64,000 bases of DNA, taken from positions 1,645 through 65,644 of the forward strand of contig JBAYVE010000005.1 in NCBI GenBank assembly GCA_041674765.1, given 5' to 3'. The stretch's first letter is position 1. Every line of letters starts with the position of its first letter. The translations under genes were made by a program, and so were the position numbers. The stretch is from Patescibacteria group bacterium (GTDB lineage: Bacteria; Patescibacteriota; UBA1384; XYA2-FULL-43-10; 1-14-0-10-43-13). This document shows positions 16,242-62,581 of this stretch, in pieces. The notes below the pieces were generated by a model. That model ran no database searches and was not told the origin of the DNA. It worked only from the letters and a program-made list of their open reading frames with translations.

Positions 16242-16249
16242 AATTTAAT

Positions 16250-45150: not shown

Positions 45151-45161
45151 AGGAGGGCAAA

Positions 45162-46970: not shown

Positions 46971-47762
46971 ATGGCGAAAGATGGGGATGTGAGATATTCC
47001 GTTTCCCCAAGTTGTTATACCGGCTGTTATTGTATTCGCCGGTGTTTGTACAACGCCAAGGTCAGGAGACCAAGGTGGGAGAGAAGTTGTGACGAAGATG
47101 TCTACGGCATTGAAAGTGCCATAGAGGTTTTTATAAGTAAACTTCTTTCAGAAACTCCTGGAACTTTCCAAGTTGAAGTTTCCAAGGAGATCCTGGAACA
47201 TGTTCCGGGCTTGATCTCAGCAGAGGGGGAGATTGACTTGGATGTCTGCCGCTCCTTTCTCCAAAAATTGGATGAAGAAAAAAAGCGAGCTGAGCAGGAG
47301 GAAGCAAGGCTTGCTGAAATCGAGCGCCGAGAAATTGCGGAGATGATTGCTGCGAGCAACGATCAGTTCCGCAACCGGTTCTCGGAGTTGGTGGGAAAAA
47401 CCGTCTCCGGGCTGGAACTTTCCGGTGACCAAACAGGCTTATGCCTTCGATTCACGGATGGATCGGAAGTCTGTTGGGAGGCTGCTCCGGGCTGCTGGTC
47501 CTGCGCTGAGGCTTGGTGGAACGACGGCATCGGCGTGGAAAATTTGTTCGGTACTCCCGTCACGGAGGTCTTACAGTTGGAGCTGCCGAATACTTCACAG
47601 CAGCGAGTCAGTGCTGTGGCTTATGGGGTTCAATTCCGAACCAGCAAAGGGGTGACGACCTTTGCTTTTCGGGGCAATCACGAGCATTACGGAGCTTCCA
47701 TTGAGATCATTGAGAAGAGCGAACTCGATGGATGGTCTCCAGTACAGGATGATTGGGGCTAG
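46971..47762 (+). CDS. Hypothetical Cys-rich N-terminus protein
   Basis: Shares its 5' leader with 41917. Followed by a rho-independent terminator at 47881-47915 (AATCCCC...GGGGATTTTTTGTT). Confidence 0.4.
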   Translation: MAKDGDVRYSVSPSCYTGCYCIRRCLYNAKVRRPRWERSCDEDVYGIESAIEVFISKLLSETPGTFQVEVSKEILEHVPGLISAEGEIDLDVCRSFLQKLDEEKKRAEQEEARLAEIERREIAEMIAASNDQFRNRFSELVGKTVSGLELSGDQTGLCLRFTDGSEVCWEAAPGCWSCAEAWWNDGIGVENLFGTPVTEVLQLELPNTSQQRVSAVAYGVQFRTSKGVTTFAFRGNHEHYGASIEIIEKSELDGWSPVQDDWG

Positions 47763-47880
47763 GCTCTCCAACCCACCGTTTCGGCGGTGGGTTGGAAATT
47801 TAAACCTGCTTTCAATGGCGGTTCTGCATAGTTTACTGCGCGGGACACTCCTGCGCCATTGTTGGCAGATTTAAAGCAAA

Positions 47881-47915
47881 AAATCCCCAACCGGAACGGA
47901 AGGGGATTTTTTGTT
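47881..47915 (+). terminator. Intrinsic terminator closing the GC-rich island
   Basis: AAAAAATCCCCAACCGGAACGGAAGGGGATTTTTTGTT: hairpin + T-run. Confidence 0.7.
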
Positions 47916-48130
47916 GCACGAGGATAGAACTTACTTATGTAATCTTTCACGCTAAAGCGCGGGCTACAAATTTTCTTCTGAGTGAAGGATTTGTCCTGCT
48001 TACAAGCTAAAGCTTGGGCTACAACCGTTTTTTAGGCCTTGAATCTGATTTTTTGTTGTCCACTTTTTTAAATTTTGGAACCGGTTTATAATTAACCCGA
48101 TGATAGATTGCCACGGCTCTTGGCCTCGCA

Positions 48131-48886: not shown

Positions 48887-49735
48887 GTGCCAAGAAACAA
48901 TAATCAAAAAAATAACAATACAACAATGAAACAATCGAACAATAAAAATTTGAACAGGGAGATCCTTCGGCAAGCTCAGGATGACAACGAAAGGGTCGGG
49001 ATCCTATATATCGTTGCTACTCCCATTGGAAATTTGCAGGACGTAACGCTTAGGGCATTGGAGACGCTCAAGTCTGTGGATTTGATAGCCGCCGAAGATA
49101 CCAGAAATACCGGTCAGCTTTTGAAACATTTTGGTATTGAAAAGCCGATGATTTCTTATTTTCAGCACTCGAAATTGTCTAAGATCGACTATATCATTGA
49201 GCAATTATTAAGCGGTAAAAACATTGCATTGGTGACCGATGCCGGAACACCGGGGATCTCTGATCCAGGACAGGAGCTGGTAGCGCGTATTAGGTATTAC
49301 GTATTAGGTATTGGGAATGAAAATTTGGGTCATGATGAAGAAATACAGAATACAAAATACATAATACATAATACGAACATAAAGATTGTGCCCATTCCTG
49401 GTCCTTCGGCGCTGACGGCGGCGGCCTCGGTTTCGGGAATGATCGAGAAGGAATTTTACTTCGCAGGGTTTTTGCCGAAGAAGAAAGGCCGCCAAACGCA
49501 ATTTAAGCGTTTGTCGACATTGGACGTGCCAATAGTCATCTATGAGTCGGCAATGCGACTAGAGCGCACCTTGGGGGATATTAGGACTTATTTTGGAGAT
49601 AATACCGAGGTGTTTATCGCTCGGGAAATTACAAAGATGTTTGAGGAATATTGGGGCGGCAGTATTATAGAAGTAATTGATAGCTTGGGAAAACATCAAT
49701 TGAAAGGTGAAATAGTTTTGATAGTTAGAAGATAG
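48887..49735 (+). CDS. rsmI: 16S rRNA (cytidine1402-2'-O)-methyltransferase
   Basis: GILYIVATPIGNLQDVTLRALETLKSVDLIAAEDTRNTGQLLKHFGI is an RsmI signature. N-terminal low-complexity extension. In-frame insertions at 48962-49005 (GATCCTTCG..CTCAGGATGACA element giving REILRQAQDDNERVG) and 49290-49385 (GTATTA/ATAATAC microsatellites). Confidence 0.8.
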   Translation: MPRNNNQKNNNTTMKQSNNKNLNREILRQAQDDNERVGILYIVATPIGNLQDVTLRALETLKSVDLIAAEDTRNTGQLLKHFGIEKPMISYFQHSKLSKIDYIIEQLLSGKNIALVTDAGTPGISDPGQELVARIRYYVLGIGNENLGHDEEIQNTKYIIHNTNIKIVPIPGPSALTAAASVSGMIEKEFYFAGFLPKKKGRQTQFKRLSTLDVPIVIYESAMRLERTLGDIRTYFGDNTEVFIAREITKMFEEYWGGSIIEVIDSLGKHQLKGEIVLIVRR

Positions 49736-49834
49736 TAGATAGTAGCTGGTAGTTAGTAGCTAGAAGTTAGAAGTTAGTAGATAGGGATTAGTAGCGGTAG
49801 CGGGGAATTACAAATAATTGGAAGGAGGGAAAAT

Positions 49835-50197
49835 ATGAAAATTTTGAACTTTACTGATCTATTGGTTTGGAAAGAGGGACATTCCCTAGTCCTGGCAATC
49901 TACGAAGCTACTAAGAGTTTTCCTCGTGAAGAAATGTTTGGGCTAACAAGTCAAATCCGTCGAGCTGTCATTTCTATCACCTCTAATATTGCTGAGGGTT
50001 TTGGGCGAAAATCAAAGAAAGAAAAAGTTAATTTTTACAATATATCTTCAGGATCTCTCACTGAAGTTCAAAATCAATTAATGATTGCAAAAGATCTGGG
50101 ATATATCTCATGTTCTCAATTTGACCTTATGCTTAATAAGAGTGTTGGCGTTTACAAGATGTTAAATGGACTGATAAGATCCATTTCGGTCGACTAG
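49835..50197 (+). CDS. Four-helix-bundle protein (TIGR02436 / so-called 23S rRNA-intervening-sequence protein, Avd-like)
   Basis: ...LVWKEGHSLVLAIYEATKSFPREEMFGLTSQIRRAVISITSNIAEGFGR......F..IS.GSL.EV.NQL..A matches this family. Flanked by TAGTAGCTA-word repeats (49736-49815) and an inverted copy (50200-50232). Confidence 0.7.
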   Translation: MKILNFTDLLVWKEGHSLVLAIYEATKSFPREEMFGLTSQIRRAVISITSNIAEGFGRKSKKEKVNFYNISSGSLTEVQNQLMIAKDLGYISCSQFDLMLNKSVGVYKMLNGLIRSISVD

Positions 50198-50250
50198 CGG
50201 CTAGCTACAAACTACTAGCTACTAATGATGTTTTCTGCTAGGATTTTACT

Positions 50251-51804
50251 ATGAGCAAATACTATATCACTACACCGATCTACTATATTAATGACGTGCC
50301 GCATATCGGGCATGCTTATACTACAATTGCCGCTGATGTCTTGGCCCGGTATTACCGCAAGAAGGGCGACAATGTTTTTTTTCTGACTGGCACTGATGAG
50401 CATGGCGCCAAAATTGCGGAAGCGGCAGAGAAAGCCGGCAAAGAGCCGAAAGCTTTTGTCGATGCATTGGTGCCCAAATTTGAGGAAGCCTGGAAGAATT
50501 TGAACATTTCATATGATCAATTTTTTCGTACCACTAACCCAAAGCATGAGAAATTGGTGCAGGAATTTGTCCAGAAATTGAAGGACAGAGGCTTTGTCGA
50601 GAAAAGATCGTATGAAGGGCTTTACTGCGTTGGCTGCGAGAAATTCTTGAAGGAATCAGAGCTTGTAGAAGGGCTTTGTCCTGATCACAAAAAAGCACCG
50701 GTGAAGCAGAAAGAGGAGAACTTTTTTTTCAAACTATCAGAATTTGCCGAACCGTTATTAAACAAAATCAAATCAAAAGAATTTGAAATAGGCCCGGAAG
50801 CTCGACAAAATGAAGTTCTTGGCAAGATCGAGGTCGGCCTTGAAGACGTTAGTATTTCACGTGCGGCCGTCGAATGGGGAGTTCCTTTTCCAGGCGATGA
50901 GTCACAGACGATTTACGTTTGGATTGATGCGCTTCTAAATTATTACACGGCGACTGAAATATACAGTAAAAAGGAATTGGATCCCCGGGTCATGGCTGCC
51001 GCCTGCTCCGAGGATGACAATAAAGAGGCTCGTGCCTGCTCCGAGGATGACAATAATTCCAATACACCCCCTCTAGCTCCCCCTCGAAAAGGGGGAGAAG
51101 TTCCTGAATGGCCGGCGGATTTGCATCTGATGGCCAAGGATATTCTCTGGTTCCATGCTGTTATTTGGCCGGCAATGCTTTTGGCACTTGATTTGCCATT
51201 GCCGAAGAAGGTTTTTGCTCACGGCTTTTTTACCATCGGCGGTCAGAAGATGAGTAAGACGATCGGTAATGTGCTCGATCCAAACCAGATGGTAGAAAAA
51301 TTCGGCGCCGATGCCGTCCGTTATGCACTTCTTCGGGAATTTCCATTTGGCGAGGATGGAGATATTTCAGAGGAAAAGATAGCTAGCCAGTACAATTCTT
51401 TGGCCAACAATATCGGCAATTTGTTCCAGAGGGTTTTGAGCATGATAGATAGGTATAACGTATTAGGTAGTACGTATTACGCAGAGAACAGGGAAAGCCT
51501 AATACATAATACAAAATACCAAATACCGGTTGATAAGGAACTTATCAATCTTGATTTTATGGGTGCGCTAAAAAAGATTGACGATTATGCGATGGAATTA
51601 AATAAATATATCGCCGAGAAGGCTCCCTGGACGCTGGCAAAAGAAGGCAAGCAGGAAGAATTGAGTGAGGTTTTAGTTACGGCATACGAAAGATTATTCC
51701 CAATCGCCGAAGGATTAGAGTCGTTTATGCCGGATACCGCCAAGAAAATGAAGGATCAATTAAAGTCGCTAAATCCAGAGCCATTATTTCCAAAACAATA
51801 CTAA
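50251..51804 (+). CDS. metG: Methionyl-tRNA synthetase
   Basis: YYITTPIYYINDVPHIGHAYTT (HIGH); Zn knuckle CVGCEKF...CPDH; KMSKTIGN. ~130-nt in-frame composite insertion at ~50970-51100 (KKELDPRVMAAACSEDDNKEARACSEDDNNSNTPPLAPPRKGGEVPEW) and microsatellite insertion at ~51450-51510. Confidence 0.9.
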   Translation: MSKYYITTPIYYINDVPHIGHAYTTIAADVLARYYRKKGDNVFFLTGTDEHGAKIAEAAEKAGKEPKAFVDALVPKFEEAWKNLNISYDQFFRTTNPKHEKLVQEFVQKLKDRGFVEKRSYEGLYCVGCEKFLKESELVEGLCPDHKKAPVKQKEENFFFKLSEFAEPLLNKIKSKEFEIGPEARQNEVLGKIEVGLEDVSISRAAVEWGVPFPGDESQTIYVWIDALLNYYTATEIYSKKELDPRVMAAACSEDDNKEARACSEDDNNSNTPPLAPPRKGGEVPEWPADLHLMAKDILWFHAVIWPAMLLALDLPLPKKVFAHGFFTIGGQKMSKTIGNVLDPNQMVEKFGADAVRYALLREFPFGEDGDISEEKIASQYNSLANNIGNLFQRVLSMIDRYNVLGSTYYAENRESLIHNTKYQIPVDKELINLDFMGALKKIDDYAMELNKYIAEKAPWTLAKEGKQEELSEVLVTAYERLFPIAEGLESFMPDTAKKMKDQLKSLNPEPLFPKQY

Positions 51805-51822
51805 TTTTTTTAAAGGAGGGAT

Positions 51823-52152
51823 ATGGGTTATAGTAAGAACAAATTTTTTAATTTTCTTATTGTGGTAACAAAGTATGTGGCACCAGCAATATTTGTGTTG
51901 GAAATTATTAGAATGGTTAATGGATTTAATCAATTTGCAGAGTCTTTTTACAAACCCCTGGCTATCGTCACCGCAATTCCAGCATTAGCGGCATTTGGAT
52001 TATCAACAATCTTTTTGTGGAAAATAAAAAAACCAACTAATTTTAAAAATTTTTTATTAGCTGTCATATTTTTGCTTGTCTATGGTTATATACTTTTTGC
52101 TCTTTTAGATCTCAGTAATTTCATCAAGTATTATTTAGGTATCGGAAACTAA
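51823..52152 (+). CDS. Small integral membrane protein (3 TM)
   Basis: Hydrophobic ORF with RBS AAAGGAGG. Confidence 0.4.
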   Translation: MGYSKNKFFNFLIVVTKYVAPAIFVLEIIRMVNGFNQFAESFYKPLAIVTAIPALAAFGLSTIFLWKIKKPTNFKNFLLAVIFLLVYGYILFALLDLSNFIKYYLGIGN

Positions 52153-52153
52153 C

Positions 52154-52993
52154 ATGTTTGCGGCTTTTATATCAGCAATTAGTAGCGCCAGCAACGATGT
52201 AATGTTAAAGACATTGCTCGGCAAATGGAAAGTACCGCTAAAGCAGTATTTACCTGGCATTTTTATATTACTGGCAATCTGTATGCTCGCGATCTCTCCT
52301 TTCGGGTTTCAATTTGACGGGGAGAAAGCGTTTACGCTCAAATTTATCCTATTCTTTGCCGGAATGATCGGAACTGCTGTCATCTGGAATACATTGATTG
52401 CCAAAAGTCTGCAAAAGGAAGCACTTCATGAATACGAACTGATTATCCTGATGGCCCCTCTAATCACGATGCTGATGGCGGGAATTCTTTTCCCCGAGGA
52501 GCGGGAATCGAAGGCTTTTATTGCCGGTGTTGTGGCCTCCGTCGCCTTGGCAGTATCGAGAATCAGAAAACATCATCTGGTTTTTTCTACGAGTGCCAAA
52601 GGTACTTTATTAGCTGTCTTTTTTATGGGAGTCGAGTCAATCTTTGTGAAGGAACTTCTCGTCGTTTTCTCGCCAGTCTTGCTAAACTGCGCTAGAGTCA
52701 TAGTCATTGCCATAGTTTTTTTGTACATTTATAAGCCATCTTTCAAAAATATCGCGCCGAAAAATGTTGGGTTGATGGCGGTTTCAGCTGTGTTCGGGGC
52801 GATGATTATGGTTGCCAAATTTACTGCTTTTAAGCAGATCGGCGTAGTTCAAACGACTTTGATTTTATTGCTCGGACCGGTTTTAACTTATGCTGCCTCT
52901 TATTTTTATTTTAAAGAAAAAAAGAATTTTATGAGGGATGCTTTGGCGGCAGCGGTAGTGATCATCGCCATCGCTTATGTTAATATAATATAG
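52154..52993 (+). CDS. Integral membrane protein (DMT/EamA-like, ~8-10 TM)
   Basis: Two similar halves of hydrophobic helices. No firm family assignment. Confidence 0.45.
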   Translation: MFAAFISAISSASNDVMLKTLLGKWKVPLKQYLPGIFILLAICMLAISPFGFQFDGEKAFTLKFILFFAGMIGTAVIWNTLIAKSLQKEALHEYELIILMAPLITMLMAGILFPEERESKAFIAGVVASVALAVSRIRKHHLVFSTSAKGTLLAVFFMGVESIFVKELLVVFSPVLLNCARVIVIAIVFLYIYKPSFKNIAPKNVGLMAVSAVFGAMIMVAKFTAFKQIGVVQTTLILLLGPVLTYAASYFYFKEKKNFMRDALAAAVVIIAIAYVNII

Positions 52994-53077
52994 CTCAAAG
53001 CAAAAAGCTAAAAGCGCAAAGTAAATGCAATTTTCTTTCGGCTTTTGACTTTAAGCTTTAAACTTTTGGCTAATGTA

Positions 53078-53866
53078 ATGTTTATCGACACTCACGCACA
53101 TTTAGATTTTCCTGAATTCAAGACCGAAGTTCCGGCTGTGCTTGGACGTGCCAAAGAAGCAGGGGTCGAGCGGATTATCAATGTCGGAGTCGATACAGAG
53201 AGTTCAAAACATTCTGTTGATCTAGCCAGGAAATACCCGGAGGTCTATGCCACTGTCGGCATTCACCCTCACTGCGCCAAGGAACTTGATATAGAGACTA
53301 GGGGAAAACTGTTCACCTTCGCCAATCATGAGAAGGTGATTGCGGTCGGTGAGATAGGATTGGATTACTATTATCTAAAAAGATCATCAAAATATGCCCA
53401 CTACCCTACGAGAGAGGAGCAGATTTTCTGTTTCGAGCAAATGCTTGATTTTGCTCTCGAAACGAACCTGCCAGCCATAATTCACGCCAGAGAGGCTTCG
53501 GCTGATATGCTGGGGATTTTGAAATCATATCATGGTCAACTTAGGGCAGTTCTGCACTGTTTCGCCGGAAATTGGGATTACGCTGAAAAACTGCTTGATT
53601 TGGGCTTTTCTCTCTCATTCACTGGCAACATCACCTTCAAAAACAACCCTGATATTGAGGAAGTGATCCGTAAAATGCCATTAGCTTCGATCATGATTGA
53701 AACTGATTGCCCCTATCTTTCACCTGAGCCATATCGCGGTAAGCGTAACGAGCCTGCTTACGTGGTCGAGGTAGCCAGGAAGATCGCTCAGATCAAAAAA
53801 ATCAGCCTCTCGGAAGTCGAGGCTGAAACCACTAAAAAAGCGATGAAATTTTTCGGGCTCAAATAA
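53078..53866 (+). CDS. tatD: TatD-family metal-dependent DNase/hydrolase
   Basis: MFIDTHAHLDF; GEIGLDYYY; IIHAREA; LHCFAG are TatD motifs. Confidence 0.85.
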   Translation: MFIDTHAHLDFPEFKTEVPAVLGRAKEAGVERIINVGVDTESSKHSVDLARKYPEVYATVGIHPHCAKELDIETRGKLFTFANHEKVIAVGEIGLDYYYLKRSSKYAHYPTREEQIFCFEQMLDFALETNLPAIIHAREASADMLGILKSYHGQLRAVLHCFAGNWDYAEKLLDLGFSLSFTGNITFKNNPDIEEVIRKMPLASIMIETDCPYLSPEPYRGKRNEPAYVVEVARKIAQIKKISLSEVEAETTKKAMKFFGLK

Positions 53867-53984
53867 TTTTGGGATCTTAAGTTTCTAATTCAATAAAATG
53901 ATTATTCTTGGGACCCCTCGATGCTTCGAGGTCGGAGAAGTTCTCCACCCGCAAGAACACGGAGTCGAACAATAATTTTTTCTG

Positions 53985-54542
53985 TTACCGGACGATTACA
54001 GCATAATTATTGCCTGCAGCAGGAGCGTCGTTACATTGAGTTTTAGCTTCAGTGTAAGTAGCGATGTCGGAAGCAGATGGCTTTTCAAGTTGAGCGTAAA
54101 TGACACCTCCATCAACGAAATTTATGTTACCAGAGAAATGACATTGATAAACCATATACTGTGGGCGTTCGCTCAATGCAATACCGTTCTCAACTTTTAA
54201 TTTTGGATCCTTCGGCTCCGTGCTCAAATACCCCTTTTCAACCAAAAACTTGGCGATGGATTTTGGATATGAGACGGCGTCTTTTGCGTTGAAATATCCC
54301 TCGCCGGTACCAAGATACCCAGACCCTGTAAGAATCCAACTCTTTTCGTTTTGATGATACATAGTCAGGGCGATAGAGATGCTCTCCAAATCGGCCTTTC
54401 TCCTGCTATCTCTGGCGGCTGTGCTCACTCTATCATAGCCCACGATCGAAATTGAAGCCAAGATGCCGATGACGGTGATAACGATTAATATCTCAATCAG
54501 TGTAAAACCCTTCGATACCCTCAGGGCAAATCCTTTTTTCAT
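53985..54542 (-). CDS. Type IV pilin / pseudopilin (prepilin-type N-terminal cleavage/methylation domain)
   Basis: KGFTLIEILIVITVIGILA: the canonical G/FTLIE motif with a hydrophobic helix. Confidence 0.8.
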   Translation of the reverse strand: MKKGFALRVSKGFTLIEILIVITVIGILASISIVGYDRVSTAARDSRRKADLESISIALTMYHQNEKSWILTGSGYLGTGEGYFNAKDAVSYPKSIAKFLVEKGYLSTEPKDPKLKVENGIALSERPQYMVYQCHFSGNINFVDGGVIYAQLEKPSASDIATYTEAKTQCNDAPAAGNNYAVIVR

Positions 54543-54632
54543 ATTCCTCCTAGAGCAATTATTTGCTTTTCTATTATAACACCTTCTAGTCCCAAAAAAG
54601 CAATAAGGCTCCTTTTTGTATTGACAAAACTA

Positions 54633-55358
54633 ATGCAAAAACTAGTCTATGGTCGAGCCTTCCTGGCGTTGTCGGTTATTCTTTGCTTTGTCTTCATCTG
54701 TCTTATCGGCAGTGGATGCAACAAGAATACCCGCAGCAATCAGGCGGCGACGACCGAGGCCAGGGACATTACTCTCCTGGTCTACGTCGACAGAAGCGAA
54801 TCGATCATGAGCTACCCCGGTGGCTTGGATGCGATCCGCAATGATTACAAGAGCATAGCTCAGGGATTTTTGAAGCCGATCTTGCAACGGCGTGACGGAG
54901 TCATCGTTGAAGCAAGAGCCTTCGTATGCGAAGATGTGATACTCTTCGACAAGAAGGTTGACAAGTGGGAGCAGATCCGGAAATCGATAAATGATGAGAT
55001 CGATAAGGATCCGTATCCTGCCGGAGAGGTGTCGAAGACGCTTTTCTCCAACTTGTTGGTAAGACTTCAGAAGGAATGCAAGCAGCGTTCTAGCCAGGAC
55101 GTCTATGTGTTAGTTCTTACAGACGGCCATCCGGATGAGCCCTTCAAGGCTATCAGTGATGCAGCCAAGGAACTCGCTAAAGACGACACTGGTAATCTGA
55201 AAGCGCTGGTTGTAGCGCCAGTCGCGGCGGATATGAAACGCCGGTGGCGGGAAAACTTGATTGAGGCTCTATCACCCATTAGTTGTTCCACGGTAGCGAA
55301 CGCGGAAGATTTCCGAACTGCAGTGGACAACGCGACAAAGACCCTGGAAGGAGAGTAG
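54633..55358 (+). CDS. Lipoprotein with von Willebrand factor A (vWA) domain
   Basis: Signal + lipobox (FICLIGSGC). MIDAS motifs LLVYVDRSESI (D.S.S) and VLVLTDGHPDE (TDG). GC about 52%, above its neighbours. The ORF track starts at TTG 54621, which coincides with a TTGACA box; ATG 54633 is preferred. Confidence 0.55.
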   Translation: MQKLVYGRAFLALSVILCFVFICLIGSGCNKNTRSNQAATTEARDITLLVYVDRSESIMSYPGGLDAIRNDYKSIAQGFLKPILQRRDGVIVEARAFVCEDVILFDKKVDKWEQIRKSINDEIDKDPYPAGEVSKTLFSNLLVRLQKECKQRSSQDVYVLVLTDGHPDEPFKAISDAAKELAKDDTGNLKALVVAPVAADMKRRWRENLIEALSPISCSTVANAEDFRTAVDNATKTLEGE

Positions 55359-55359
55359 C

Positions 55360-56901
55360 ATGTTGAATATTCTGACTACACTGGTGCCGGGCGTTAAGAG
55401 AACCTGGACCATCATAAATCAGTCTGACGTTGAAAATCGGATTGCCGAGCTTAGACGTTCGATTGAAGAGGGTCATGAGGCTGAATTGAATGCATATCGT
55501 CAGCGGGAGCCCGAAAAAACCGCTGATGTCGCCTCAATCCTCGGGTGGGAAAACGAAGGCCGATTAATGGCCACCACCCATCGCGATGAATTGATCGCAT
55601 TCGAGAGTCAATGGCAGGATCTGCTAGGCAAAGTCGGACGGCTAAATGGCCTGTTCGGCGATTATGGCACTGCCTATGCAAGGCTCGTTACCGCGATTGA
55701 CGATGCACGGACAAGCGCAGACACCGAGCTCCAGCCACTCATACAGGAACAAAATGAGCTGGATACACTCAAAGCTTGCGTGATCGAGGGCTGGGAGAAA
55801 ATAAACCAGCAACTCAACGGACTTGGGGTCTGTGGCCTAAGCGATCGATTTGACGGTTGGGAGTCACTGGCTCGGAAAGCCTTCCTGCGGGAAGCCTGTC
55901 AGGCCAGGAGAATTGACCCTGACAATCGTCCGCAAGTGCCGGAACAGCCGGCAACGCCGGTACCGCCCACGCCGACAACATCAAGAACGATCGTCGAAAA
56001 ATCGTTCGGTATCCACGATCTGGCGATGCTGGTTGGCGGACTGGCCTTTGGTTCGTCGATCGGTGCTGCAATCGGCGGGATCAGTTTTGACAGTGATGGG
56101 TGGCATTTTTCCCTCATCTTCTGGATAATGCTGGCCGTTGCCACGCTGGCCGTGTATACGGTGGGAAGAATGGTTTTCCCGCGCTTGTCGATAGTTCGTC
56201 AGCTTGATAGTATCGATTGCTATCCATATCTGCCAGTAACAAATGAAACCATGCTGGCAAAGGAGACGAGGGAAAAGAATGCCAGACTCGCGCTCTATGG
56301 AATTATCGCGATCTTCGCTATTCTTTGCCTGGCTGACTTTTATGGCTGGTGGCGGGCTGTTACAGAGCAAAACGCCGCTTATAGTGGTGATAACGGAGCG
56401 GTGTTTCTGAACCCTATCTGGGCCGGGCTCGCGGTGATGTTCATCACCTCTCTAATGGCATTCGTGAAGCTGGCTGGGGTTACCGCTCTTGTCAATGCAC
56501 AACGTTATCTTCTCATGGATGAGATAACGAAGAATGCGATCGAATACAGCGACGAAGCGCGAAAGTTCAAGGCTCTCGATGAGGCATTCATACAAGCACA
56601 GGTAACAGCGAAGGAATACGATGATAAATTCGTCGAAGCTGAGGCCAATGCTGATCTTCGCTTCCGTCGGGAGATGGCTGATCTATCTCAGCAGATCGAT
56701 CGTTATCGCAAGCTAGCCGAGGGGTATGAAACCCAGGCAGACAATGGATTGCGGGAGCGGATTCAGCAGATCATCAACGCAGCGCTTTTGAGCGTTCAAC
56801 CGGAGCGGACTACACTGGCGGCGATCGAGTTTAAGATCGATGACATTTATCAAAAGACCGGCAGCCTGATGGTCGCCGAGTCTGACGCGCAGATTGTCTA
56901 A
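55360..56901 (+). CDS. Membrane protein with N-terminal cytoplasmic coiled-coil region, Pro/Thr linker, 4-5 TM segments and C-terminal coiled-coil; forms operon with vWA lipoprotein
   Basis: The start is 1 nt after the vWA stop. Hydrophobic segments at ~aa 215-245, 250-275, 315-340, 350-380. Terminator hairpin + T-run at ~56928-56962. Confidence 0.45.
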   Translation: MLNILTTLVPGVKRTWTIINQSDVENRIAELRRSIEEGHEAELNAYRQREPEKTADVASILGWENEGRLMATTHRDELIAFESQWQDLLGKVGRLNGLFGDYGTAYARLVTAIDDARTSADTELQPLIQEQNELDTLKACVIEGWEKINQQLNGLGVCGLSDRFDGWESLARKAFLREACQARRIDPDNRPQVPEQPATPVPPTPTTSRTIVEKSFGIHDLAMLVGGLAFGSSIGAAIGGISFDSDGWHFSLIFWIMLAVATLAVYTVGRMVFPRLSIVRQLDSIDCYPYLPVTNETMLAKETREKNARLALYGIIAIFAILCLADFYGWWRAVTEQNAAYSGDNGAVFLNPIWAGLAVMFITSLMAFVKLAGVTALVNAQRYLLMDEITKNAIEYSDEARKFKALDEAFIQAQVTAKEYDDKFVEAEANADLRFRREMADLSQQIDRYRKLAEGYETQADNGLRERIQQIINAALLSVQPERTTLAAIEFKIDDIYQKTGSLMVAESDAQIV

Positions 56902-57039
56902 CGCGTCTGGACCAACCGAGGCCCTACTCCAGGAGTCATTCTGGAGCGGGGCTTTTTTTATTATCTTACAGTACTTGTAATGTAAGACTTTTTTTGTTAA
57001 TATCAGTACTAACGATGGCGAATGGGTTTGCAGATTAAT

Positions 57040-57085
57040 AAACCACCCCTAGCCCCTCCTTGAAAAGGAGGGGAAGTAAAGGAAA
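57040..57085 (+). repeat. Hairpin element AAACCACCCCTAGCCCCTCCTTGAAAAGGAGGGGAAG (family CCCCTC-GAAAAG-GGGGAG) supplying SD-like sequence to downstream gene
   Basis: Same family as 51063-51100, 58340-58385, 58663-58712, 31797-31840, 48738-48775 and 120-160 (inverted). Confidence 0.75.
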
Positions 57086-57297
57086 TGATGAAAAAGATTA
57101 CTACCAACAAATTGCAAGATGGACTTTCAAAGGTTATCAAGGAAGTTGAGACAGGAGAAGTTTATGAAGTCAGCCGCTATTCCAAGGCGGTGGCTTATCT
57201 TGTTTCCAAAGAGCAATTTGAAAAACTGATTTCCGGTAGCGAGTGCAAAGAGTGTATGAATGATTTGCGGAAAATTGCAGAAAAACTCAAAAGGTAA
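57085..57297 (+). CDS. Phd/YefM-like antitoxin-fold protein
   Basis: ITTNKLQDGLSKVIKEVETGEVYEVSRYSKAVAYLVSKEQFEKL aligns with YefM/Phd (IS.SEAR.NLS......E.....I.TR.G...VL.S.EEY..L). Confidence 0.5.
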   Translation: MMKKITTNKLQDGLSKVIKEVETGEVYEVSRYSKAVAYLVSKEQFEKLISGSECKECMNDLRKIAEKLKR

Positions 57298-57318
57298 AAC
57301 GAAAAAGGAAAAACTACA

Positions 57319-57669
57319 ATGGAAAACGAAAAAGTTTACGATTTGAGAAAACGCTCATTTAATTTTTCTTTAGATATTATTGAATTCTTGAAATCTCTTC
57401 CAAATAATTATATTGATCAAGTCCTTTGTAAACAGCTTTTGCGTTGTGCAACAAGTATTGGGGCGAACATAATCGAAGCACAGGCAGCTCCAAGTAAAAA
57501 AGATTTCGCTAACTTTTATAACATTTCACTCAAATCAGCGAACGAGACAAAATATTGGCTGATGCTTATTGAAGAAAGTTCCATTGCTGATACGAGTCTA
57601 TTTTTAGTAGAAGCAGAGGAATTAGCCAAGATTTTAGCAAAAAGCTTATTAACAATGAGGGGAAAATAG
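57319..57669 (+). CDS. Four-helix-bundle protein (TIGR02436 family, paralog of 49835..50197)
   Basis: ...QLLRCATSIGANIIEAQAAPSKKDFANFYNISLKSANETKYWLMLI matches the same family. Starts 21 nt after the Phd-like gene. Confidence 0.7.
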   Translation: MENEKVYDLRKRSFNFSLDIIEFLKSLPNNYIDQVLCKQLLRCATSIGANIIEAQAAPSKKDFANFYNISLKSANETKYWLMLIEESSIADTSLFLVEAEELAKILAKSLLTMRGK

Positions 57670-57719
57670 TTTTTAATTATTACTTGTGGTTCTTCGTTAT
57701 TATTTTTTAGTTTTGACTT

Positions 57720-59120
57720 ATGAATAGGATTTATTTAGACAATGCAGCGACAACTAAGCCGGCGCCGGAAGTAATTGAGTTTATGGCGAAGGCCCAAGAA
57801 AAATATTGGGGCAATCCCTCCTCAATCCACACTTTTGGCCAGGAGGCTCGGAGAGTGGTTGACGATGCGAGAAGGCTCGTTAGCTTTTTCATTGGCTGCG
57901 AGCAGGAAGAGGTTATTTTTACATCAGGCGGAAGTGAGAGCGACAACCTGGCGATACGAGGCATCATTAGTTCTGTCATTCCAGCCCCCGATCAGGTCGA
58001 GGGTAAAACTCCGGCTGGAATCCAGACAAATAAGGAATTGGATTCCGGATCTCAAGCTACAGTCCGGAATGACACTATTTTAAAGCCGCATGTAATCACT
58101 TCCGCAGTCGAACATCATGCGGTGCTACATACAGTGCAGGAACTTGAAAAAGAGGGGAAGATCGAGGCTACTTATATCAAACCAGATGGCGAAGGATTGA
58201 TTACCCCAGAAATGGTGAAAGCTGCGATTCGAGACAACACAATATTGGTTTCCATCATTTATGTTAATAACGAAACTGGTGTTGTAACCCCTATTCGCGA
58301 GATTGGATTGATGCTGGAAGTTGAGAACAACAAGAGGTTAACAATAAACCCCACCCAACCTCCCCTTGAAAAGGGGCGGAGTAAAAGGATCTATTTCCAT
58401 ACCGATGCGGTGCAGGCGGCGGAATTCTTCGAGATTTCACCTGAATATTTGAAGGTAGATTTACTTTCTCTGACTGCTCATAAATTTCATGGACCTAGAG
58501 GAATCGGTGTTCTATATGTCAAGAAAGGGACTCCAGTCAAAGCGCAAATTACCGGTGGCGATCATGAATTTCGACTGCGAGCCGGGACGGAAAATACGCC
58601 GGCCATTGCAGGCCTCGCTAAAGCAGTTGATCTGATTTTGAAAGAACGAGATAATTCTATTAATACACCCCCTCTAAATCCCCCTCGAAAAGGGGGAGAA
58701 TATAAGGAGAACGGGGCGTTGCCAGAATTGATTATTTCAAATGAATGTTTGCGGCTATCAAATTTGCGGGACAAACTGATTCAAGGCATTGTTGAGCAAA
58801 TTCCTGATGCTTATTTAAATGGCAGTGAAATCAGACGAAGCCCTAATATTGTAAATATTAGTTTCTTCAATGCTGAAGGCGAGGCAATCGTCTTGAACCT
58901 AGATTTCATGGGTATTGCAGTTAGCTCTGGCTCGGCTTGCACCTCGAGATCTCTGGACCCCAGTCACGTTTTGTCAGCGATGGGCATTCCGCCGGAAAAG
59001 GCCCACGGCTCGATCCGTTTTTCGCTCAGCCGTGAGACAACAGAGGAAGAAATTGACAAAGTGCTGGAAGTGTTACCGGGAATCATCGATAAACTGCGAT
59101 TGATGTCGCCGTTTAACTAA
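57720..59120 (+). CDS. iscS: Cysteine desulfurase (IscS/NifS family)
   Basis: IYLDNAATT; SGGSESDNLA; LSLTAHKFHGPRGIG; active-site SSGSACTS. Three in-frame element insertions (~57985-58078, 58340-58385, 58663-58740). Confidence 0.85.
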   Translation: MNRIYLDNAATTKPAPEVIEFMAKAQEKYWGNPSSIHTFGQEARRVVDDARRLVSFFIGCEQEEVIFTSGGSESDNLAIRGIISSVIPAPDQVEGKTPAGIQTNKELDSGSQATVRNDTILKPHVITSAVEHHAVLHTVQELEKEGKIEATYIKPDGEGLITPEMVKAAIRDNTILVSIIYVNNETGVVTPIREIGLMLEVENNKRLTINPTQPPLEKGRSKRIYFHTDAVQAAEFFEISPEYLKVDLLSLTAHKFHGPRGIGVLYVKKGTPVKAQITGGDHEFRLRAGTENTPAIAGLAKAVDLILKERDNSINTPPLNPPRKGGEYKENGALPELIISNECLRLSNLRDKLIQGIVEQIPDAYLNGSEIRRSPNIVNISFFNAEGEAIVLNLDFMGIAVSSGSACTSRSLDPSHVLSAMGIPPEKAHGSIRFSLSRETTEEEIDKVLEVLPGIIDKLRLMSPFN

Positions 59121-59228
59121 ATTTCTAATTATTAATTTCTAATTTCTAATCAAATCCTAATGTCAATTCTCAAATGTTAAAAATTAGAGTTTTAAAATTG
59201 AATAAAAATTAAATAACAAATAAAAATT

Positions 59229-59708
59229 ATGAATGGATATACAAAAGAAGTGATGGATCATTTTATGAATCCTCGCAATATCGGGGAGATTGAAAATGCC
59301 GACGGGATCGGCGAAGTCGGTAATATGAAATGCGGCGATGTGATGTACGTTTATATTAAAATTGGTCGTCGGCCAATTTTAAGTCAAAAGTCAAAAGTCA
59401 AAAGTCAAAATGGCGGTAGCCTCTCCGAGGCTGGTCAAAAAGAGATAGGAAACTTACAAGAAGAATTTATTGAGGATATTAAATTCAAGACGCTCGGTTG
59501 CGCGGCGGCGATCGCTTCTTCCTCGATGATGACAGAGCTGGCCAAGGGTAAAAGTCTAGAGGAGGCGAAATTAATTTCCAGAGATGATATAAATGAAGCA
59601 TTGGGAATTTTGCCTCAGCAAAAATATCATTGTTCGATCCTGTCGGCAGAGGGAATACAGAAGGCAATAACTAACTTTGAGAATAACAAAAAAACAAAAA
59701 TCAAATAA
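59229..59708 (+). CDS. iscU: Fe-S cluster scaffold protein (IscU/NifU N-terminal domain)
   Basis: HFMNPRNIGEIENADGIGEVGNMKCGDVMYVYIKI ... KFKTLGCAAAIASSSMMTELAKGKSLEEA. In-frame AGTCAAA x4 repeat (SQKSKVKSQ) at ~59385-59412. Confidence 0.8.
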   Translation: MNGYTKEVMDHFMNPRNIGEIENADGIGEVGNMKCGDVMYVYIKIGRRPILSQKSKVKSQNGGSLSEAGQKEIGNLQEEFIEDIKFKTLGCAAAIASSSMMTELAKGKSLEEAKLISRDDINEALGILPQQKYHCSILSAEGIQKAITNFENNKKTKIK

Positions 59709-59797
59709 CAAATAATTTACAAAATTCAAATTCCAGTTGTTTGGTATTTAGAATTTGAGATTTATTTGAAGTTTGGTGCTTGATATTTGGAGTTTAA

Positions 59798-60673
59798 ATG
59801 GAAAATTTATTTGACGGTAGAAAAATCAGAGATGAGATTTTGGGCGAATTATCTAAAGAGATCAAACTAAGAGACAGAGCTCCTCACTTGGCTGTTTTTT
59901 TGATTGGCGAAAATCCGGTTTGCGAAAGCTATGTAGAGCTGAAGAAGAAACAGGCCGAGAAAATTGGCGTTACATTCAGTTTGTACCGATTTGATGACGA
60001 TGACAGTGAAGAAGGAATATTTGAGTGTATTGATTTCTTAAATAAGGATGAAGAAGTCGATGGCATTATGATTCAAATCCCCATATCAGAGAAATTTGAC
60101 CGCAACAAATTGATTGGAAAAATATCTCCAGCAAAGGATATCGATGGCCTTAGATATTGTCTTGGACTCGATTCCAATTTCAAGCCGCCGGTCGTTTTGG
60201 CAATTATGAAAGCACTCGAATTAAGTTCCACATTCCAAGAAACAGCAACAACCAATCAAACTCCAAACTTCAAAATAGAAAAATTGCAAAATAAAAAAAT
60301 TGTCCTCGTTGGTCATGGTTTTCTGGTAGGAGCGCCGTTAGCTAGGGCGCTGGAAGAGATTGGTGTTGAGCCAATTGTCGTTCTGAACGAAGTGAACAAT
60401 CTCAAAGAGAATGAGAGATCCTTCGCTGATGCTCAGGATGACATTGGAGGTGCTGATATAATTGTCTCTGCCACCGGCCAGCCCAATATTATCAAGGAAG
60501 AGATGGTCAAAGAGGGAGTTGTGTTAGTGGACGCCGGAACAGCGGAATTTAACGGCCAGCTTGTTGGTGATATCGAACCCGAAGCTTACAAGAAATCATC
60601 ATATTATACGCCAGTTCCAGGCGGTATTGGTCCGGTCACGGTGGCAATGTTGTTTAAAAATTTAATAAAGTAG
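59798..60673 (+). CDS. folD: Bifunctional methylenetetrahydrofolate dehydrogenase/cyclohydrolase
   Basis: LAVFLIGENPVCESYVELKKKQAEKIGV...; PAKDIDG; IVLVGHGFLVGAPLA; TPVPGGIGPVTVAMLFKN. In-frame insertions at ~60195-60300 and 60415-60455 (GATCCTTCG..CTCAGGATGACA giving RSFADAQDDIGG). Confidence 0.85.
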   Translation: MENLFDGRKIRDEILGELSKEIKLRDRAPHLAVFLIGENPVCESYVELKKKQAEKIGVTFSLYRFDDDDSEEGIFECIDFLNKDEEVDGIMIQIPISEKFDRNKLIGKISPAKDIDGLRYCLGLDSNFKPPVVLAIMKALELSSTFQETATTNQTPNFKIEKLQNKKIVLVGHGFLVGAPLARALEEIGVEPIVVLNEVNNLKENERSFADAQDDIGGADIIVSATGQPNIIKEEMVKEGVVLVDAGTAEFNGQLVGDIEPEAYKKSSYYTPVPGGIGPVTVAMLFKNLIK

Positions 60674-60831
60674 GACTTGTCTTCTCGACTCCAAGAACAC
60701 CGCTCGAAGAATAAAGTGGTTATACACCGCTTGAAGAACAGAGAGCGCAAACAAAAAAAGGCTTATGGGATAAGACAAGCAATCCTCATGGAATATATTG
60801 AATGATTATTGTTCGACCTTGTGGAGAACAA

Positions 60832-61101
60832 ATGGCCAATTGGCATTGGTATGTATATATTATCGAATGTCTTGATAAGACCTATTATACTGGGATGACT
60901 TGGAATGTAGCTAATCGGCTGGATCAGCATGTTTCTGGATTAGGTTCGAAATATACAGGGAAACACGGAGTTTCTAAGCTTGCTTATTATGAGGAATTTA
61001 ATGATTTGGAAATGGCTCGTAATAGGGAGAAGCAGTTAAAAGGCTGGAGTCAGGAAAAGAAAAGGAAGCTGATCTCCGGTGAATGGGGAAAAGAATGGTG
61101 A
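60832..61101 (+). CDS. Small GIY-YIG nuclease-domain protein (YhbQ-like), third paralog
   Basis: WYVYIIECLDKTYYTGMTWNVANRLDQH......LAYYEEF....ARNREKQLKGWSQEKK. Confidence 0.65.
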   Translation: MANWHWYVYIIECLDKTYYTGMTWNVANRLDQHVSGLGSKYTGKHGVSKLAYYEEFNDLEMARNREKQLKGWSQEKKRKLISGEWGKEW

Positions 61102-61121
61102 TTGTGTAAAGGATAAGGTCA

Positions 61122-61208
61122 TATTTATTCTTCGACTCCTCGGTCTTCGAGGTTGGAGAAGTACAAATACTGTTAGTTCTCCACCCGCAAGCACACGGAG
61201 TCGAACAA
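61122..61208 (+). repeat. ~85-nt structured element TTCTTCGACTCCTCGGTCTTCGAGGTTGGAGAAGTACAAATACTGTTAGTTCTCCACCCGCAAGCACACGGAGTCGAACAATAA; near-identical direct copy at 62446-62530; partial copies at 53925-53995, 2655-2695, 60680-60700
   Basis: The two copies differ at ~3 positions and flank mnmA. Internal hairpins are CCTCGGTCTTCGAGG and GGAGAAG...TTCTCC, with an outer pairing TTCGACTCC/GGAGTCGAA. Confidence 0.8.
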
Positions 61209-61262
61209 TAAAGACGAGACAAGAACACGAGTCGAAGAATAAAGAAACAACGCATCTTAATT

Positions 61263-62438
61263 ATGAAATCCAAAAATTCTACAATTAAAGTCGCGGTTGG
61301 TATGTCGGGTGGAGTGGACTCGTCTGTGTCGGCGATGCTTTTGAAAGAGGCTGGTTATGATGTAATCGGCGTATTTTTGAAATTCTGGTTTGACTCGACT
61401 TGCAATGGATCTCGGGAAAATGCCTGCTGCAATGATCAGGCGCTGATAGACGCACGGGCAGTCGCTGATAAAATCGGTATACCGCTCTATACTGTCGACG
61501 CCCGAGAGCCGTTCAAGAAAGAAGTGACCGACTATTTTGTTGATGAATACAAAAATTTGAGGACGCCAAATCCGTGTGTCGTTTGCAATAAGAAAATTAA
61601 ATTTGGCTGGTTTCTCGATTTTGCGGAGAAATTGGGCTGTGATTTTGTAGCCACGGGACACTACGCTCGAATTGCAAGGGGCAATTCGAGCAGTATTAAG
61701 GGATCAGTATTAAGTATTAAGCATAATACAGAATACAAAATACATAATACGGATACGCCCTTGTGGCTTTTGAAAGGCGTAGCTCCCGCCAAGGATCAAT
61801 CCTATTTTCTCTACCAGCTTGATCAACGTCAGCTTTCAAAAATACTTTTTCCTGTCGGCGAAATGACAAAGGTGGAGGTGCGAGCGCTAGCAAAGAAATA
61901 CGATTTACCGGTATTTGAAAAAGTAGAAAGCCAGGAAGTTTGTTTTATCCAAGATGAAGATTACCGCGGTTTTCTGCACCGTCATCTCGGCGAGAAGGCA
62001 TTTAAACCTGGAAACATCGTCGGCAAAGAGGGCAATATTATCGGTAAGCACGAAGGATTGATTAATTATACGATCGGACAGAGGCGAGGAATTGACCAGA
62101 GCCGAAAGCAAAAAGCCGAAAGCAAAAAGCCACTTTATGTCACCGGCTTTGACGTTGAGAAGAATGAACTTATCGTTGGGAATAATAAAGAGCTATTTAG
62201 AGATGAATTTACGATTGAAAAGGCATGTTTTAGTACTAAGTTCGAAGTTCTAAGTACTGAGAAAATGACAGTTAAAATCCGCTATCAGGCTGAGGCTGTC
62301 TCGTGTATTATTGAACCCATAATACATAATACAAAATACCTAATACGACTAAGCTCGCCCCAGCGTGCCATTACTCCCGGCCAGAGTGCGGTCTTTTATG
62401 ACAGTGATCGTGTTGTTGGCGGAGGAATCATTAGTTAG
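61263..62438 (+). CDS. mnmA: tRNA 2-thiouridine(34) synthase
   Basis: VAVGMSGGVDSSVSA (PP-loop SGGxDS); CNDQ; CVVCNKKIKF. In-frame microsatellite insertions at ~61690-61760 (SSIKGSVLSIKHNTEYKIHNTDTP), 62100-62132 (SRKQKAESKK) and 62315-62345 (IIHNTKYLIR). Confidence 0.85.
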   Translation: MKSKNSTIKVAVGMSGGVDSSVSAMLLKEAGYDVIGVFLKFWFDSTCNGSRENACCNDQALIDARAVADKIGIPLYTVDAREPFKKEVTDYFVDEYKNLRTPNPCVVCNKKIKFGWFLDFAEKLGCDFVATGHYARIARGNSSSIKGSVLSIKHNTEYKIHNTDTPLWLLKGVAPAKDQSYFLYQLDQRQLSKILFPVGEMTKVEVRALAKKYDLPVFEKVESQEVCFIQDEDYRGFLHRHLGEKAFKPGNIVGKEGNIIGKHEGLINYTIGQRRGIDQSRKQKAESKKPLYVTGFDVEKNELIVGNNKELFRDEFTIEKACFSTKFEVLSTEKMTVKIRYQAEAVSCIIEPIIHNTKYLIRLSSPQRAITPGQSAVFYDSDRVVGGGIIS

Positions 62439-62581
62439 AAGCCTATTCTTCGACTCCTCGGTCTCCGAGGTTGGAGAAGTGCAAATACTGTTAGTCCTCC
62501 ACCCGCAAGCACACGGAGTCGAACAATAATTGGCAAAAACTCATGATTTATCATTTTGGTCTTAAACATTATACTAGAGCT

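Follow-up and report, generated by a model that had tools for sequence, protein, structure and literature searches.

The window analysed here, a 64 kb contig stretch (44% G+C) from a metagenome-assembled genome (MAG) of the Patescibacteria, carries a dispersed family of short, oriented hairpin repeats. We put at about 0.85 the probability that these are Ssn-related repeats of the same kind as the Neisseria Transformation Sequence (NTS) and dRS3. The window also encodes a homologue of the Ssn nuclease between two inverted copies of the repeat, and this repeat-ssn-repeat architecture recurs in dozens of other genomes. Of the roughly 28 units curated in the 64 kb window, about 13 lie within conserved housekeeping reading frames, without breaking the frame.

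The Ssn family comprises 94-residue proteins with a single GIY-YIG domain (cd10448), and the broader set of repeats connected with it is termed Ssn-related motifs (SRM). The NTS, CGTCATTCCCGCGMAVGCGGGAATCYRG, contains dRS3, and NTS arrays form NIME mosaics. Ssn binds the hairpin in one orientation and solely when it is single-stranded DNA, and its cut falls a few nucleotides 5' of the hairpin; for cutting, the three bases preceding the palindrome are important, and for binding, the C that directly follows it. The residues mutated in SsnA were Y6, Y17 and E64. The ssn genes are typically flanked by repeats (NTS-ssnA-NTS), Ssn modulates transformation in Neisseria, and the role of Ssn and its repeats outside Neisseria was stated to be unknown (Chenal et al., Nat Commun 2025; PMC11893778). 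A related word that occurs in that paper, GTCATTCCCGC, was the lead to the identification made here.

Repeat units and their association with ssn genes

The dispersed repeat family is real and statistically solid. The motif GAGATCCTTCG-N(5-8)-CTCAGGATGACA has four exact matches, all on the + strand (20237-20264, 31607-31637, 48959-48986 and 60415-60443), and none in 100 dinucleotide-preserving shuffles. Allowing up to one mismatch, CTCAGGATGAC occurs at 10 sites in the window against 0.66 expected, and TGTCATYC, counted on both strands, at 26 sites in 64 kb against 4.0 ± 1.9 expected (shuffle maximum, 9). Repeat density is 4–8 per 10 kb in the window, in a further part of the same contig (L001) and in the related loci L204 and L205; in the relative L203 it is at background, 1.0 per 10 kb. 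A permissive hairpin scan, which required at least 5 of 8 stem positions to pair and gave 55 matches against about 24 expected, served only for finding candidates, and these were curated by eye afterwards. Judged within the window and the loci of its relatives, the repeats share with NTS/SRM repeats a copy number far above chance. An earlier note on this DNA had proposed a repeat family, and both the shuffle statistics and the occurrence of the motif in at least 120 other genomes bear this out. Every location listed there contains the sequence described: the intergenic copies before uvrD and ksgA are two of the exact motif matches, and a hairpin unit is found at each of the related words (2470-2530, 2700-2760, 28998-29066, 39187-39215, 39477-39510, 57985-58078, 63225-63300 and 63850-63930).

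The units have a common oriented frame, (T)GTC-ATYC...GRAT-C(CAG), in which a 5' (T)GTC is followed by a stem beginning with ATYC, a variable inner stem and loop, a closing GRAT and then C (often CCAG). Like the NTS, each is an oriented hairpin with a non-palindromic 5' GTC flank and a C directly 3' of the palindrome. The word that reads QDD in rsmI and folD had been described as a palindrome; it is instead the reverse strand of a subtype that we call GA-type, and that strand, TGTC-ATCCT-GA-GC-loop-GC-GA-AGGAT-CTC, forms one hairpin unit (ATCCT, tandem mismatch, GC-loop-GC, AGGAT), which is oriented and whose flanks are asymmetric. Its separation from the GTCATYC..GRATGAC composites as a second family also gives way, the two being subtypes or orientations of one superfamily. 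The GA-type stem consists of 5 bp, a tandem G·A/A·G mismatch and two G-C pairs (GC/GC), with a short GNA-type loop. Among the 159 instances listed from 120 genomes, the spacer is mostly CGCAG, CGAAG or CGTAG, with end bases that pair in 87%; a T precedes GTCAT in 124 and follows GGATC in 133. Spacer and flanks together give a GCGNAGC core, which we take to be the unusually stable DNA mini-hairpin d(GCGAAGC).

The NTS-like units fold as single-stranded DNA hairpins with z-scores of -2.6 to -4.3 (for example TGTCATTCCGGACTTGATCCGGAATCCAG, TGTCATCCTGAACTCGTTTCAGGATCCCA and TGTCATCCTCGGGCTCGACCCGGGGATCCCAG). The unit TGTCATTCCGGACTTGATCCGGAATCCAG shares its 5' GTCATTCC and its 3' GGAATCCAG with the Neisseria NTS. 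Several units carry a conserved 3' tail, CCARTTCCTTATT, which in the inverted unit is the AAGGAATTGG spacer of the earlier note. Composites consist of a forward unit and then an inverted unit; since they share the inverted-pair arrangement that brackets ssn, we read them as cassettes without the gene, that is, as the ssn-cassette architecture minus its nuclease. Before uvrD, the units at 20179-20210 and 20237-20264 pair in a 91-nt fold (-19.9 kcal/mol, z -4.05). A 47-nt unit at 2713-2763 is near-identical (97%) to the unit upstream of ssn, consistent with recent copying.

The nuclease gene itself had been overlooked. Membership of the Ssn family is defined by a blastp E-value below 1e-10 to SsnA, a length of about 94 residues and a single GIY-YIG domain, cd10448 (PMC11893778), and the open reading frame (ORF) at 32810-33091, with a GTG start that we infer at 32810, has the homology, length, domain and catalytic residues of that family. 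Its product is 57% identical over 89 residues, ungapped (E 3e-39), to the 94-residue N. gonorrhoeae SsnA orthologue, whose sequence was taken from a gonococcal chromosome, and Y7, Y18 and E65 align with the catalytic Y6, Y17 and E64 of SsnA. The cassette at 32725-33143 has the repeat-ssn-repeat arrangement described in PMC11893778; the gonococcal ssnA locus holds nine dRS3/NTS copies in 1.1 kb.

The published SRM pattern, HGTCWYN(0-2)YYVSBRHN(0-5)WNVSBRGN(0-2)RNCYNB, was hand-built from 29 genomes of 4 phyla (PMC11893778). It matches none of the window units exactly, and its sole match in the window is an unrelated site; NTS-like units lie one substitution away from it, the GA type two and the Neisseria NTS none. 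The association with ssn was therefore tested directly. Homologues of the window Ssn (52–74% identity) are encoded in 80 metagenomic loci, 75 of which had enough flank for analysis. A sense-strand GTCATYC lies within 200 nt upstream of the gene in 52 of the 75 and a GRATGAC within 200 nt downstream in 40, with both sides occupied in 33, against a background of 0.02–0.04 per 200 nt. These words are densest over the 100 nt nearest the gene (7.2 and 5.6 per kb); their density is orientation-specific and drops to zero by about 600 nt. In the window cassette, as in 33 of these loci, the repeats stand on both sides of ssn in inverted orientation. The flanking units include the exact Neisseria NTS (on both sides in locus L160), each of the NTS-like variants of the window and the GA type, GTCATYCYGAGCGNAGCGARGRATCT, which adjoins Ssn-like genes in L010, L080, L082, L098, L137, L167, L168, L175, L178 and L186.

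The reverse test, a scan for GATCCTTCG-N-CTCAGGATGAC in one genome per species, returned at least 120 loci. The GA-type matches listed come from Chloroflexota, Acidobacteriota, Bacteroidota, Clostridia, Planctomycetota, Omnitrophota, Saccharibacteria, Gemmatimonadota, Pseudomonadota and others, often as inverted pairs. Among these listed matches, an Ssn-like gene lies 27–126 nt from the motif in four of the at least 120 loci, and unbiased clustering of the ORFs nearby gave recurrence in more than two loci only for ABC ATPases (six), a ubiquitous family, and for the Ssn GIY-YIG proteins (four).

The units therefore resemble the NTS and SRM in being oriented hairpins in which 5' GTC(AT) is conserved and a C adjoins the 3' end of the palindrome, several of them sharing GTCATTCC...GGAATCCAG with the NTS; in their dozens of copies, mosaic clustering and wide phyletic spread; and in bracketing, as inverted units, a gene for a 94-residue single-domain GIY-YIG protein 57% identical to gonococcal SsnA. 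They differ in their host, a Patescibacteria MAG from a group unmentioned in PMC11893778, in the lack of an exact fit to the published pattern, in the tandem-mismatch stem of the GA type and in the large in-frame fraction, and they are known here from sequence alone. The main text of PMC11893778 makes no mention of intragenic or in-frame copies or of Patescibacteria, and literature searches on palindromic elements in candidate-phyla-radiation bacteria and on Patescibacteria repeats returned no description of the phenomenon.

Several observations weigh against this identification. Besides the misfit to the SRM pattern, the GA-type units have a weak hairpin energy under nearest-neighbour DNA parameters (z about 0). 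The window ssn is flanked by NTS-like rather than GA-type units, and the protein that recognizes the GA type could be any of the three GIY-YIG proteins of the window, or none. Protein identity to the relatives with empty sites is only about 65%, and intergenic DNA cannot be aligned with L203, which leaves no target-site signature definable. For the selection on DNA discussed below, the folD codon comparison uses sequence pairs that are not independent, and the link of motif decay to repeat-poor genomes comes from one lineage, L203.

In-frame copies in housekeeping genes

That copies lie in frame within essential genes, as proposed earlier, is confirmed for rsmI, folD, metG, iscS and recG by comparison with solved structures or syntenic relatives, and 12 of the units in housekeeping frames are shown to be insertions. 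MetRS (MetG), IscS and FolD were named by alignment to solved structures, KsgA (RrnaAD) and UvrD by Pfam matches in the window, RecG by a Pfam match on the same contig (L001), and RsmI only through TP_methylase matches in the syntenic orthologues of L203 and L204. The syntenic order compared was ksgA-Nramp-rsmI-metG-...-iscS-nifU-folD-mnmA-recG. In rsmI as in folD, the in-frame translation of the copy contains ...AQDD..., and the duplicated CSEDDN peptide noted in metG is present. Against the L203 orthologues, RsmI has a 21-residue N-terminal insertion and MetRS a 43-residue one, and residues 237-285 of MetRS form a 49-residue insertion relative to the structure 2csx. In IscS, residues 85-122 are a 38-residue insertion relative to 9wep, and there are two further insertions. 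The folD copy is an insertion of about 10 residues (ERSFADAQDD) relative to solved FolD structures.

The comparison of relatives proposed in the earlier note did reveal occupied and empty sites. In L203, the RsmI, MetRS and IscS elements are missing, as are the two RecG elements; no ssn cassette separates ksgA from Nramp, and no GIY-YIG gene separates folD from mnmA. At the IscS site, other orthologues read VIS...QNDK, VIA...RNDN or VIS...RDDN, that is, VI..(R/Q)(N/D)D in general. The first recG site holds a GA-type pair in L205, MnmA carries ...PEDDK in L204 alone among the relatives compared, and distant FolD orthologues read RSFTDVQDDK, RSFAGAQDDK, LDSRFRGNDK or, at another loop, PEDDK. Site occupancy differs between lineages, and the sites have therefore been filled and emptied many times. 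In six of six independent in-gene events the reverse unit is read in its ..DD.. frame; the other open frame (L-R-M-T) is never used, and the third contains a stop. This bias fits selection for hydrophilic loop peptides.

Other repeats are also translated in these genes. Runs of a AATACATAATAC heptamer give (I)HNTKY peptides in RsmI, MetRS, MnmA and RecG, and CCCCTCC-loop-GGAGGGG hairpins give PPL.PPRKGGE in MetRS, IscS (twice) and KsgA. UvrD (20356-23658; 1100 residues) contains an intein (Pfam Intein_splicing, residues 310-632).

In the folD element, a forward and an inverted arm (VILNEVKNL...RSFADAQDD) are common to six orthologues that are only 60–76% identical. Counting identical codons among identical residues in five lineages, over sequence pairs that are not independent of one another, 142 of 160 (89%) are identical within the element (95% in the reverse arm) against 677 of 1585 (43%) elsewhere. 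The spacer between the arms has diverged in sequence and length, which speaks against a recent transfer of this segment; gene conversion from other genomic copies is disfavoured by the loop, which is orthologous and not homogenized to those copies. At the repeat-poor L203 locus, FolD has kept the peptide (KSFADAQDD) and the DNA word has decayed. The element is thus not merely tolerated, as had been supposed of all copies, at least in folD, where the peptide is conserved in six lineages and the synonymous sites of the DNA in five. In an AlphaFold model of FolD (mean pLDDT 91.8), its residues 193-217 form a confident strand-loop-helix of the Rossmann domain; a second insertion, at residues 147-161 and specific to the window, is disordered in that model.

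The forward arm coincides with a native 'V.V...TKNL' segment of FolD, and the insertion-free orthologue of L208 (1373-2167) reads VILNSNENRSDI where the window has positions 60385-60446. The native segment may have seeded the insertion by microhomology, or it may be the remnant of a deletion. A bolder reading, which we consider less likely than not, is that purifying selection at synonymous sites maintains the copies in essential genes as DNA hairpins across deeply diverged lineages, with decay only in lineages that have lost the repeat system.

Further units, nuclease genes and neighbouring loci

The coordinates of the units and of the ssn gene are given in Table 1. GC skew is positive across the whole window, whose genes lie mostly on the + strand. 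The cleavable strand of the four single GA-type copies would be the - strand, presumably the leading-strand template as well as the transcribed strand. Their orientation may reflect avoidance of self-cutting, though four copies are too few for a test.

Table 1. Repeat units, ssn gene and further in-frame repeats of the window (positions in the 64 kb stretch)
Feature	Position	Strand	Remarks
NTS-like unit whose loop contains a GA-type core	192-251	-	
Gene-free intergenic mosaic	2477-2763	.	forward 2477-2518, forward variant 2531-2569, reverse 2713-2763
Forward GA-type unit before uvrD, TGTCATTCTGAGG-GTGTTG-GCGAAGAATCTAG	20179-20210	+	curated scan
GA-type unit (QDD word on + strand), intergenic before uvrD	20237-20264	-	exact motif
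Tandem array of the 5' half-site, GCTCAGGATGACAAAAATAA on + strand	20252-20359	-	period 19-20, about 5.6 copies; Tandem Repeats Finder
Variant unit TGTCATCTCGAGCGGTGTTCTTGGAGCCGAGAGATC in the uvrD frame (FVISSGVLGAERSF)	22848-22886	+	stop-free; position within the frame only
Intergenic inverted pair, GGTCATCCTGAATTTGATTCAGGATCCAG ... reverse TGTCATTCCGGACTCGATCCGGAATCTAT	28996-29063	.	
GA-type unit, intergenic before ksgA (rRNA adenine dimethylase; Pfam RrnaAD)	31607-31637	-	exact motif
Forward NTS-like unit upstream of ssn, TGTCATTCCAG...CTGGAATCCAG	32725-32773	+	single-stranded DNA hairpin -10 kcal/mol, z -2.2
ssn, 94-residue single-domain GIY-YIG nuclease homologue	32810-33091	+	within mechanical ORF 32687-33160
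Inverted NTS-like unit downstream of ssn, TGTCATCCTCGGG...CCCGAGGATCCAG on - strand	33093-33143	-	
Intergenic NTS-like unit TGTCATCCTCGGGCTCGACCCGGGGATCCCAG	39188-39219	+	hairpin z -2.6; 1 substitution from the published SRM pattern
Perfect 12-bp palindromic hairpin TGTCATCCCCGGGCTTGACCCGGGGATGACA	39476-39506	.	
GA-type unit in frame in rsmI (EILRQAQDDN)	48959-48986	-	exact motif
NTS-like unit in frame in metG (KKELDPRVMAAACSEDDNKEARACSEDDN)	50968-51052	-	3' tail AAGGAATTGG and 33-nt partial duplication
Inverted pair in frame in iscS (VIPAPDQVEGKTPAGIQTNKELDSGSQATVRNDT)	57974-58074	.	forward 57974-58025, reverse 58038-58074
Degenerate forward arm in folD (VVLNEVNNL)	60394-60420	+	intact as GTCATTCTGAACGAAGTGAAGAATCT in orthologues L204-L207
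GA-type unit in frame in folD (ERSFADAQDD)	60415-60443	-	exact motif
Inverted pair in frame in recG (CHPELVSGSQKKELDPRV...EPEDDT)	63189-63291	.	z -3.2
Second inverted pair in frame in recG (CHSGLDPESSNKELDPEWTTASVQDDI)	63843-63921	.	forward unit z -4.3
Heptamer and PPL.PPRKGGE in-frame repeats	49280-49380, 51450-51540, 61690-61760, 62310-62350, 51061-51099, 58343-58381, 58662-58700, 31794-31832		
Further unit sequences: TGTCATCCTGAGCAAAGCGAAGGATCTC; TTATTGTTCGACTCC...GGAGAAC unit			

Arrays of half-sites (period 18–24; TGTCATYC plus the first stem bases) like the one before uvrD are also found beside ssn homologues in L124-L131, L125, L144 and L145. They lie on the GTC side of a complete unit and recur in unrelated genomes, and they may record repeated rounds of cutting and repair immediately 5' of the hairpin.

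Two more GIY-YIG genes are present in the window. The second (60832-61101) is UPF0213-like, 36% identical to SsnA and absent from the syntenic relatives. It was considered as the best Ssn candidate and rejected: NCBIfam returned nothing for it, the Protein Data Bank only UPF0213 proteins, and the gene at 32810 is the better match. Its flanking repeats belong to another family, TTATTGTTCGAC(TCC)...GGAGAAC (60679-61211), 86-nt copies of which, 97% identical, bracket mnmA (60679-61211; 62444-62529); the core of this repeat, TCGAGCGGTGTTCTTGGAGYCGAGA, also occurs in the variant units at 2531-2569 and 22848-22886. The gene may be a paralogue with a cognate repeat of its own. The third gene (5865-6110) is 33% identical to SsnA (E 7e-8) and is enclosed by a 23-nt direct repeat, TTATTCCGAGATCGTCTAGTGG (5791-6126), whose second copy is the 5' end of a tRNA-Gln gene (6108-6181). 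The segment looks like a nuclease mini-cassette of about 290 nt that has integrated in the tRNA gene and duplicated its target. Just upstream of the nuclease gene, on the - strand (5833-5862), lies an SRM-like hairpin, TGTCATGTCCGCCCAAAGGGCGAGATCTCG.

Elsewhere, copies of the 23S rRNA intervening sequence protein/bAvd, a four-helix bundle (PF05635, PF22296), are found between housekeeping genes at 49835-50197 and 57319-57669 and, in L001, at 16002-16349. The region 40000-48000, with 55% G+C (about 43% elsewhere), contains long ORFs that overlap on the two strands as well as a DEAD/HA2 helicase; it may be of foreign origin.

Origin of the repeats and implications

Because no transposase was found in the ORFs examined, we consider the spread of the repeats to be transposase-free. 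They would multiply in a way probably linked to nicking by Ssn and to repair or recombination, perhaps by nick-induced repair or template switching. Insertions into genes would survive only if they are in frame, clear of the stop-containing frame and placed in permissive loops, which would yield the hydrophilic ..DD.. peptides. Old copies such as that of folD may then become part of the protein, with the DNA hairpin possibly still under selection in repeat-rich genomes.

The earlier note had seen these elements as MITE-like. Classical MITEs, miniature transposable elements with inverted repeats, would be moved by a transposase acting in trans on terminal inverted repeats, here TGTCATCC/GGATGACA, with target-site duplications. 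The composites of 70–110 nt with inverted ends, their near-identical copies (97%, 93% and 93%) and their lineage-variable occupancy are all as such elements would have them. What makes this origin very unlikely is that no transposase or integrase family was matched in the 20 ORFs tested or in the contig-end gene list (about 77 kb seen), so that a transposase-encoding parent with matching terminal repeats is missing from that stretch, and that no signature of terminal repeats plus target duplication, or other hallmark of classical MITEs, emerged in comparisons with relatives too diverged to fix insertion boundaries at the nucleotide. In the window, units standing alone and half-site arrays are found as often as pairs, the gene bracketed here and in 33 of the 75 loci encodes a 94-residue GIY-YIG nuclease rather than a transposase, and the same 20-nt core is found across many phyla, unlike the ends of insertion sequences. 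The elements match instead the NTS/SRM repeats, the cognate sites of Ssn.

Slightly less probable still is that they are repeats like REP (repetitive extragenic palindromic) elements and bacterial interspersed mosaic elements (BIMEs), kept by a Y1 HUH transposase of the RAYT or IS200/IS605 type, or targets of a Piv/IS110-type recombinase. The hairpins and their mosaic clustering would suit the former, a resemblance to REP/BIME that the authors of the Ssn study noted themselves, and dRS3 is cited as a phage recombinase target (PMC11893778). No gene for such an enzyme was seen in the 64–77 kb inspected, however, and the recurrent neighbour of the repeats is Ssn.

A function in transcripts, as terminators, attenuators or protein-binding RNA hairpins, seems to us very improbable. 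The four single GA-type copies do lie on the sense strand of + strand genes, two of them just upstream of genes, and the tandem G·A and GNRA-like loop of the opposite strand would also make a good RNA motif; but it is a weak U·C/C·U version that the mRNA strand of the four copies carries. Rfam, at gathering thresholds, matched only two tRNAs in the window, a promoter and terminator scan near the uvrD-proximal copies gave nothing above shuffles, units are found in either orientation relative to genes and also within coding regions, and SsnA does not bind RNA (PMC11893778).

Convergence of selected protein modules (..RSFADAQDD.., ..VIP..RND..), with DNA similarity as a by-product, is essentially refuted as the origin, even though six lineages, L203 with its decayed DNA among them, have conserved the folD peptide, which is modelled as structured, and six of six in-gene events use the ..DD.. 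frame, since identical DNA words are also intergenic and in both orientations, the same word is read in different frames (VIL/VIP versus CHPE/CHSG) and synonymous sites are conserved; it survives as a secondary layer of selection on old copies.

As Ssn-related repeats, the elements also invite comparison with other small repeats that enter genes. Like the Rickettsia palindromic elements (RPE; Ogata et al. 2000, reviewed in PMC10969869), they are palindromic, inserted in frame in unrelated housekeeping genes of a reduced genome, translated as extra peptides compatible with the fold, and lineage-specific in their insertion pattern, with occupied and empty sites among relatives. The resemblance is one of behaviour only: RPEs are about 100–150 bp long and defined in Rickettsia, in contrast to the units of 25–60 nt tied to Ssn here. 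Rickettsia is among the genomes with more than 300 SRMs (PMC11893778), and the RPE and SRM phenomena may overlap. With REP/BIME and their RAYT enzymes, the units share short hairpins, here presumably also recognized as single-stranded DNA, mosaics and a position flanking the gene of the cognate enzyme. Their partner, however, is a GIY-YIG nuclease and not an HUH transposase, and they are often intragenic, unlike the extragenic REPs. The intragenic MITEs of enterobacteria (ERIC/RU; PMC2759123) are similarly very small, found inside genes and frame-keeping. Their sequences are unrelated to those of the units described here, and they have no known GIY-YIG partner. The small dispersed repeats of cyanobacteria are likewise very small, unrelated in sequence and inserted inside genes without breaking the frame, and to our knowledge no GIY-YIG partner is known for them either. 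New here are the Patescibacteria host, the in-frame colonization of essential genes and the DNA-level conservation of the folD pair.

These findings offer a mechanistic lead, a nuclease partner, for odd protein insertions in Patescibacteria and possibly also for the palindromic elements of Rickettsia. For annotation, ..RSFA.AQDDK.., ..VIPA.AGIQ.. and ..LDSRFRGNDK.. should be read as repeat-derived sequence, and not as domain features or spurious genes. At this locus of the candidate phyla radiation, such repeats are written into the sequences of FolD, MetRS, IscS, RsmI and RecG. The folD hairpin with its synonymous conservation, set against L203 with the peptide only, provides a natural test case for whether repeats are selected as DNA. 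If they are, the Ssn/repeat system would have a chromosome-wide function in DNA-scavenging, probably naturally competent bacteria, possibly in marking or parcelling self DNA during uptake and recombination, and would also be a major source of new protein segments. The three GIY-YIG paralogues of the window, each with its own flanking repeat, would then be mobile nuclease-plus-site modules of different specificity.

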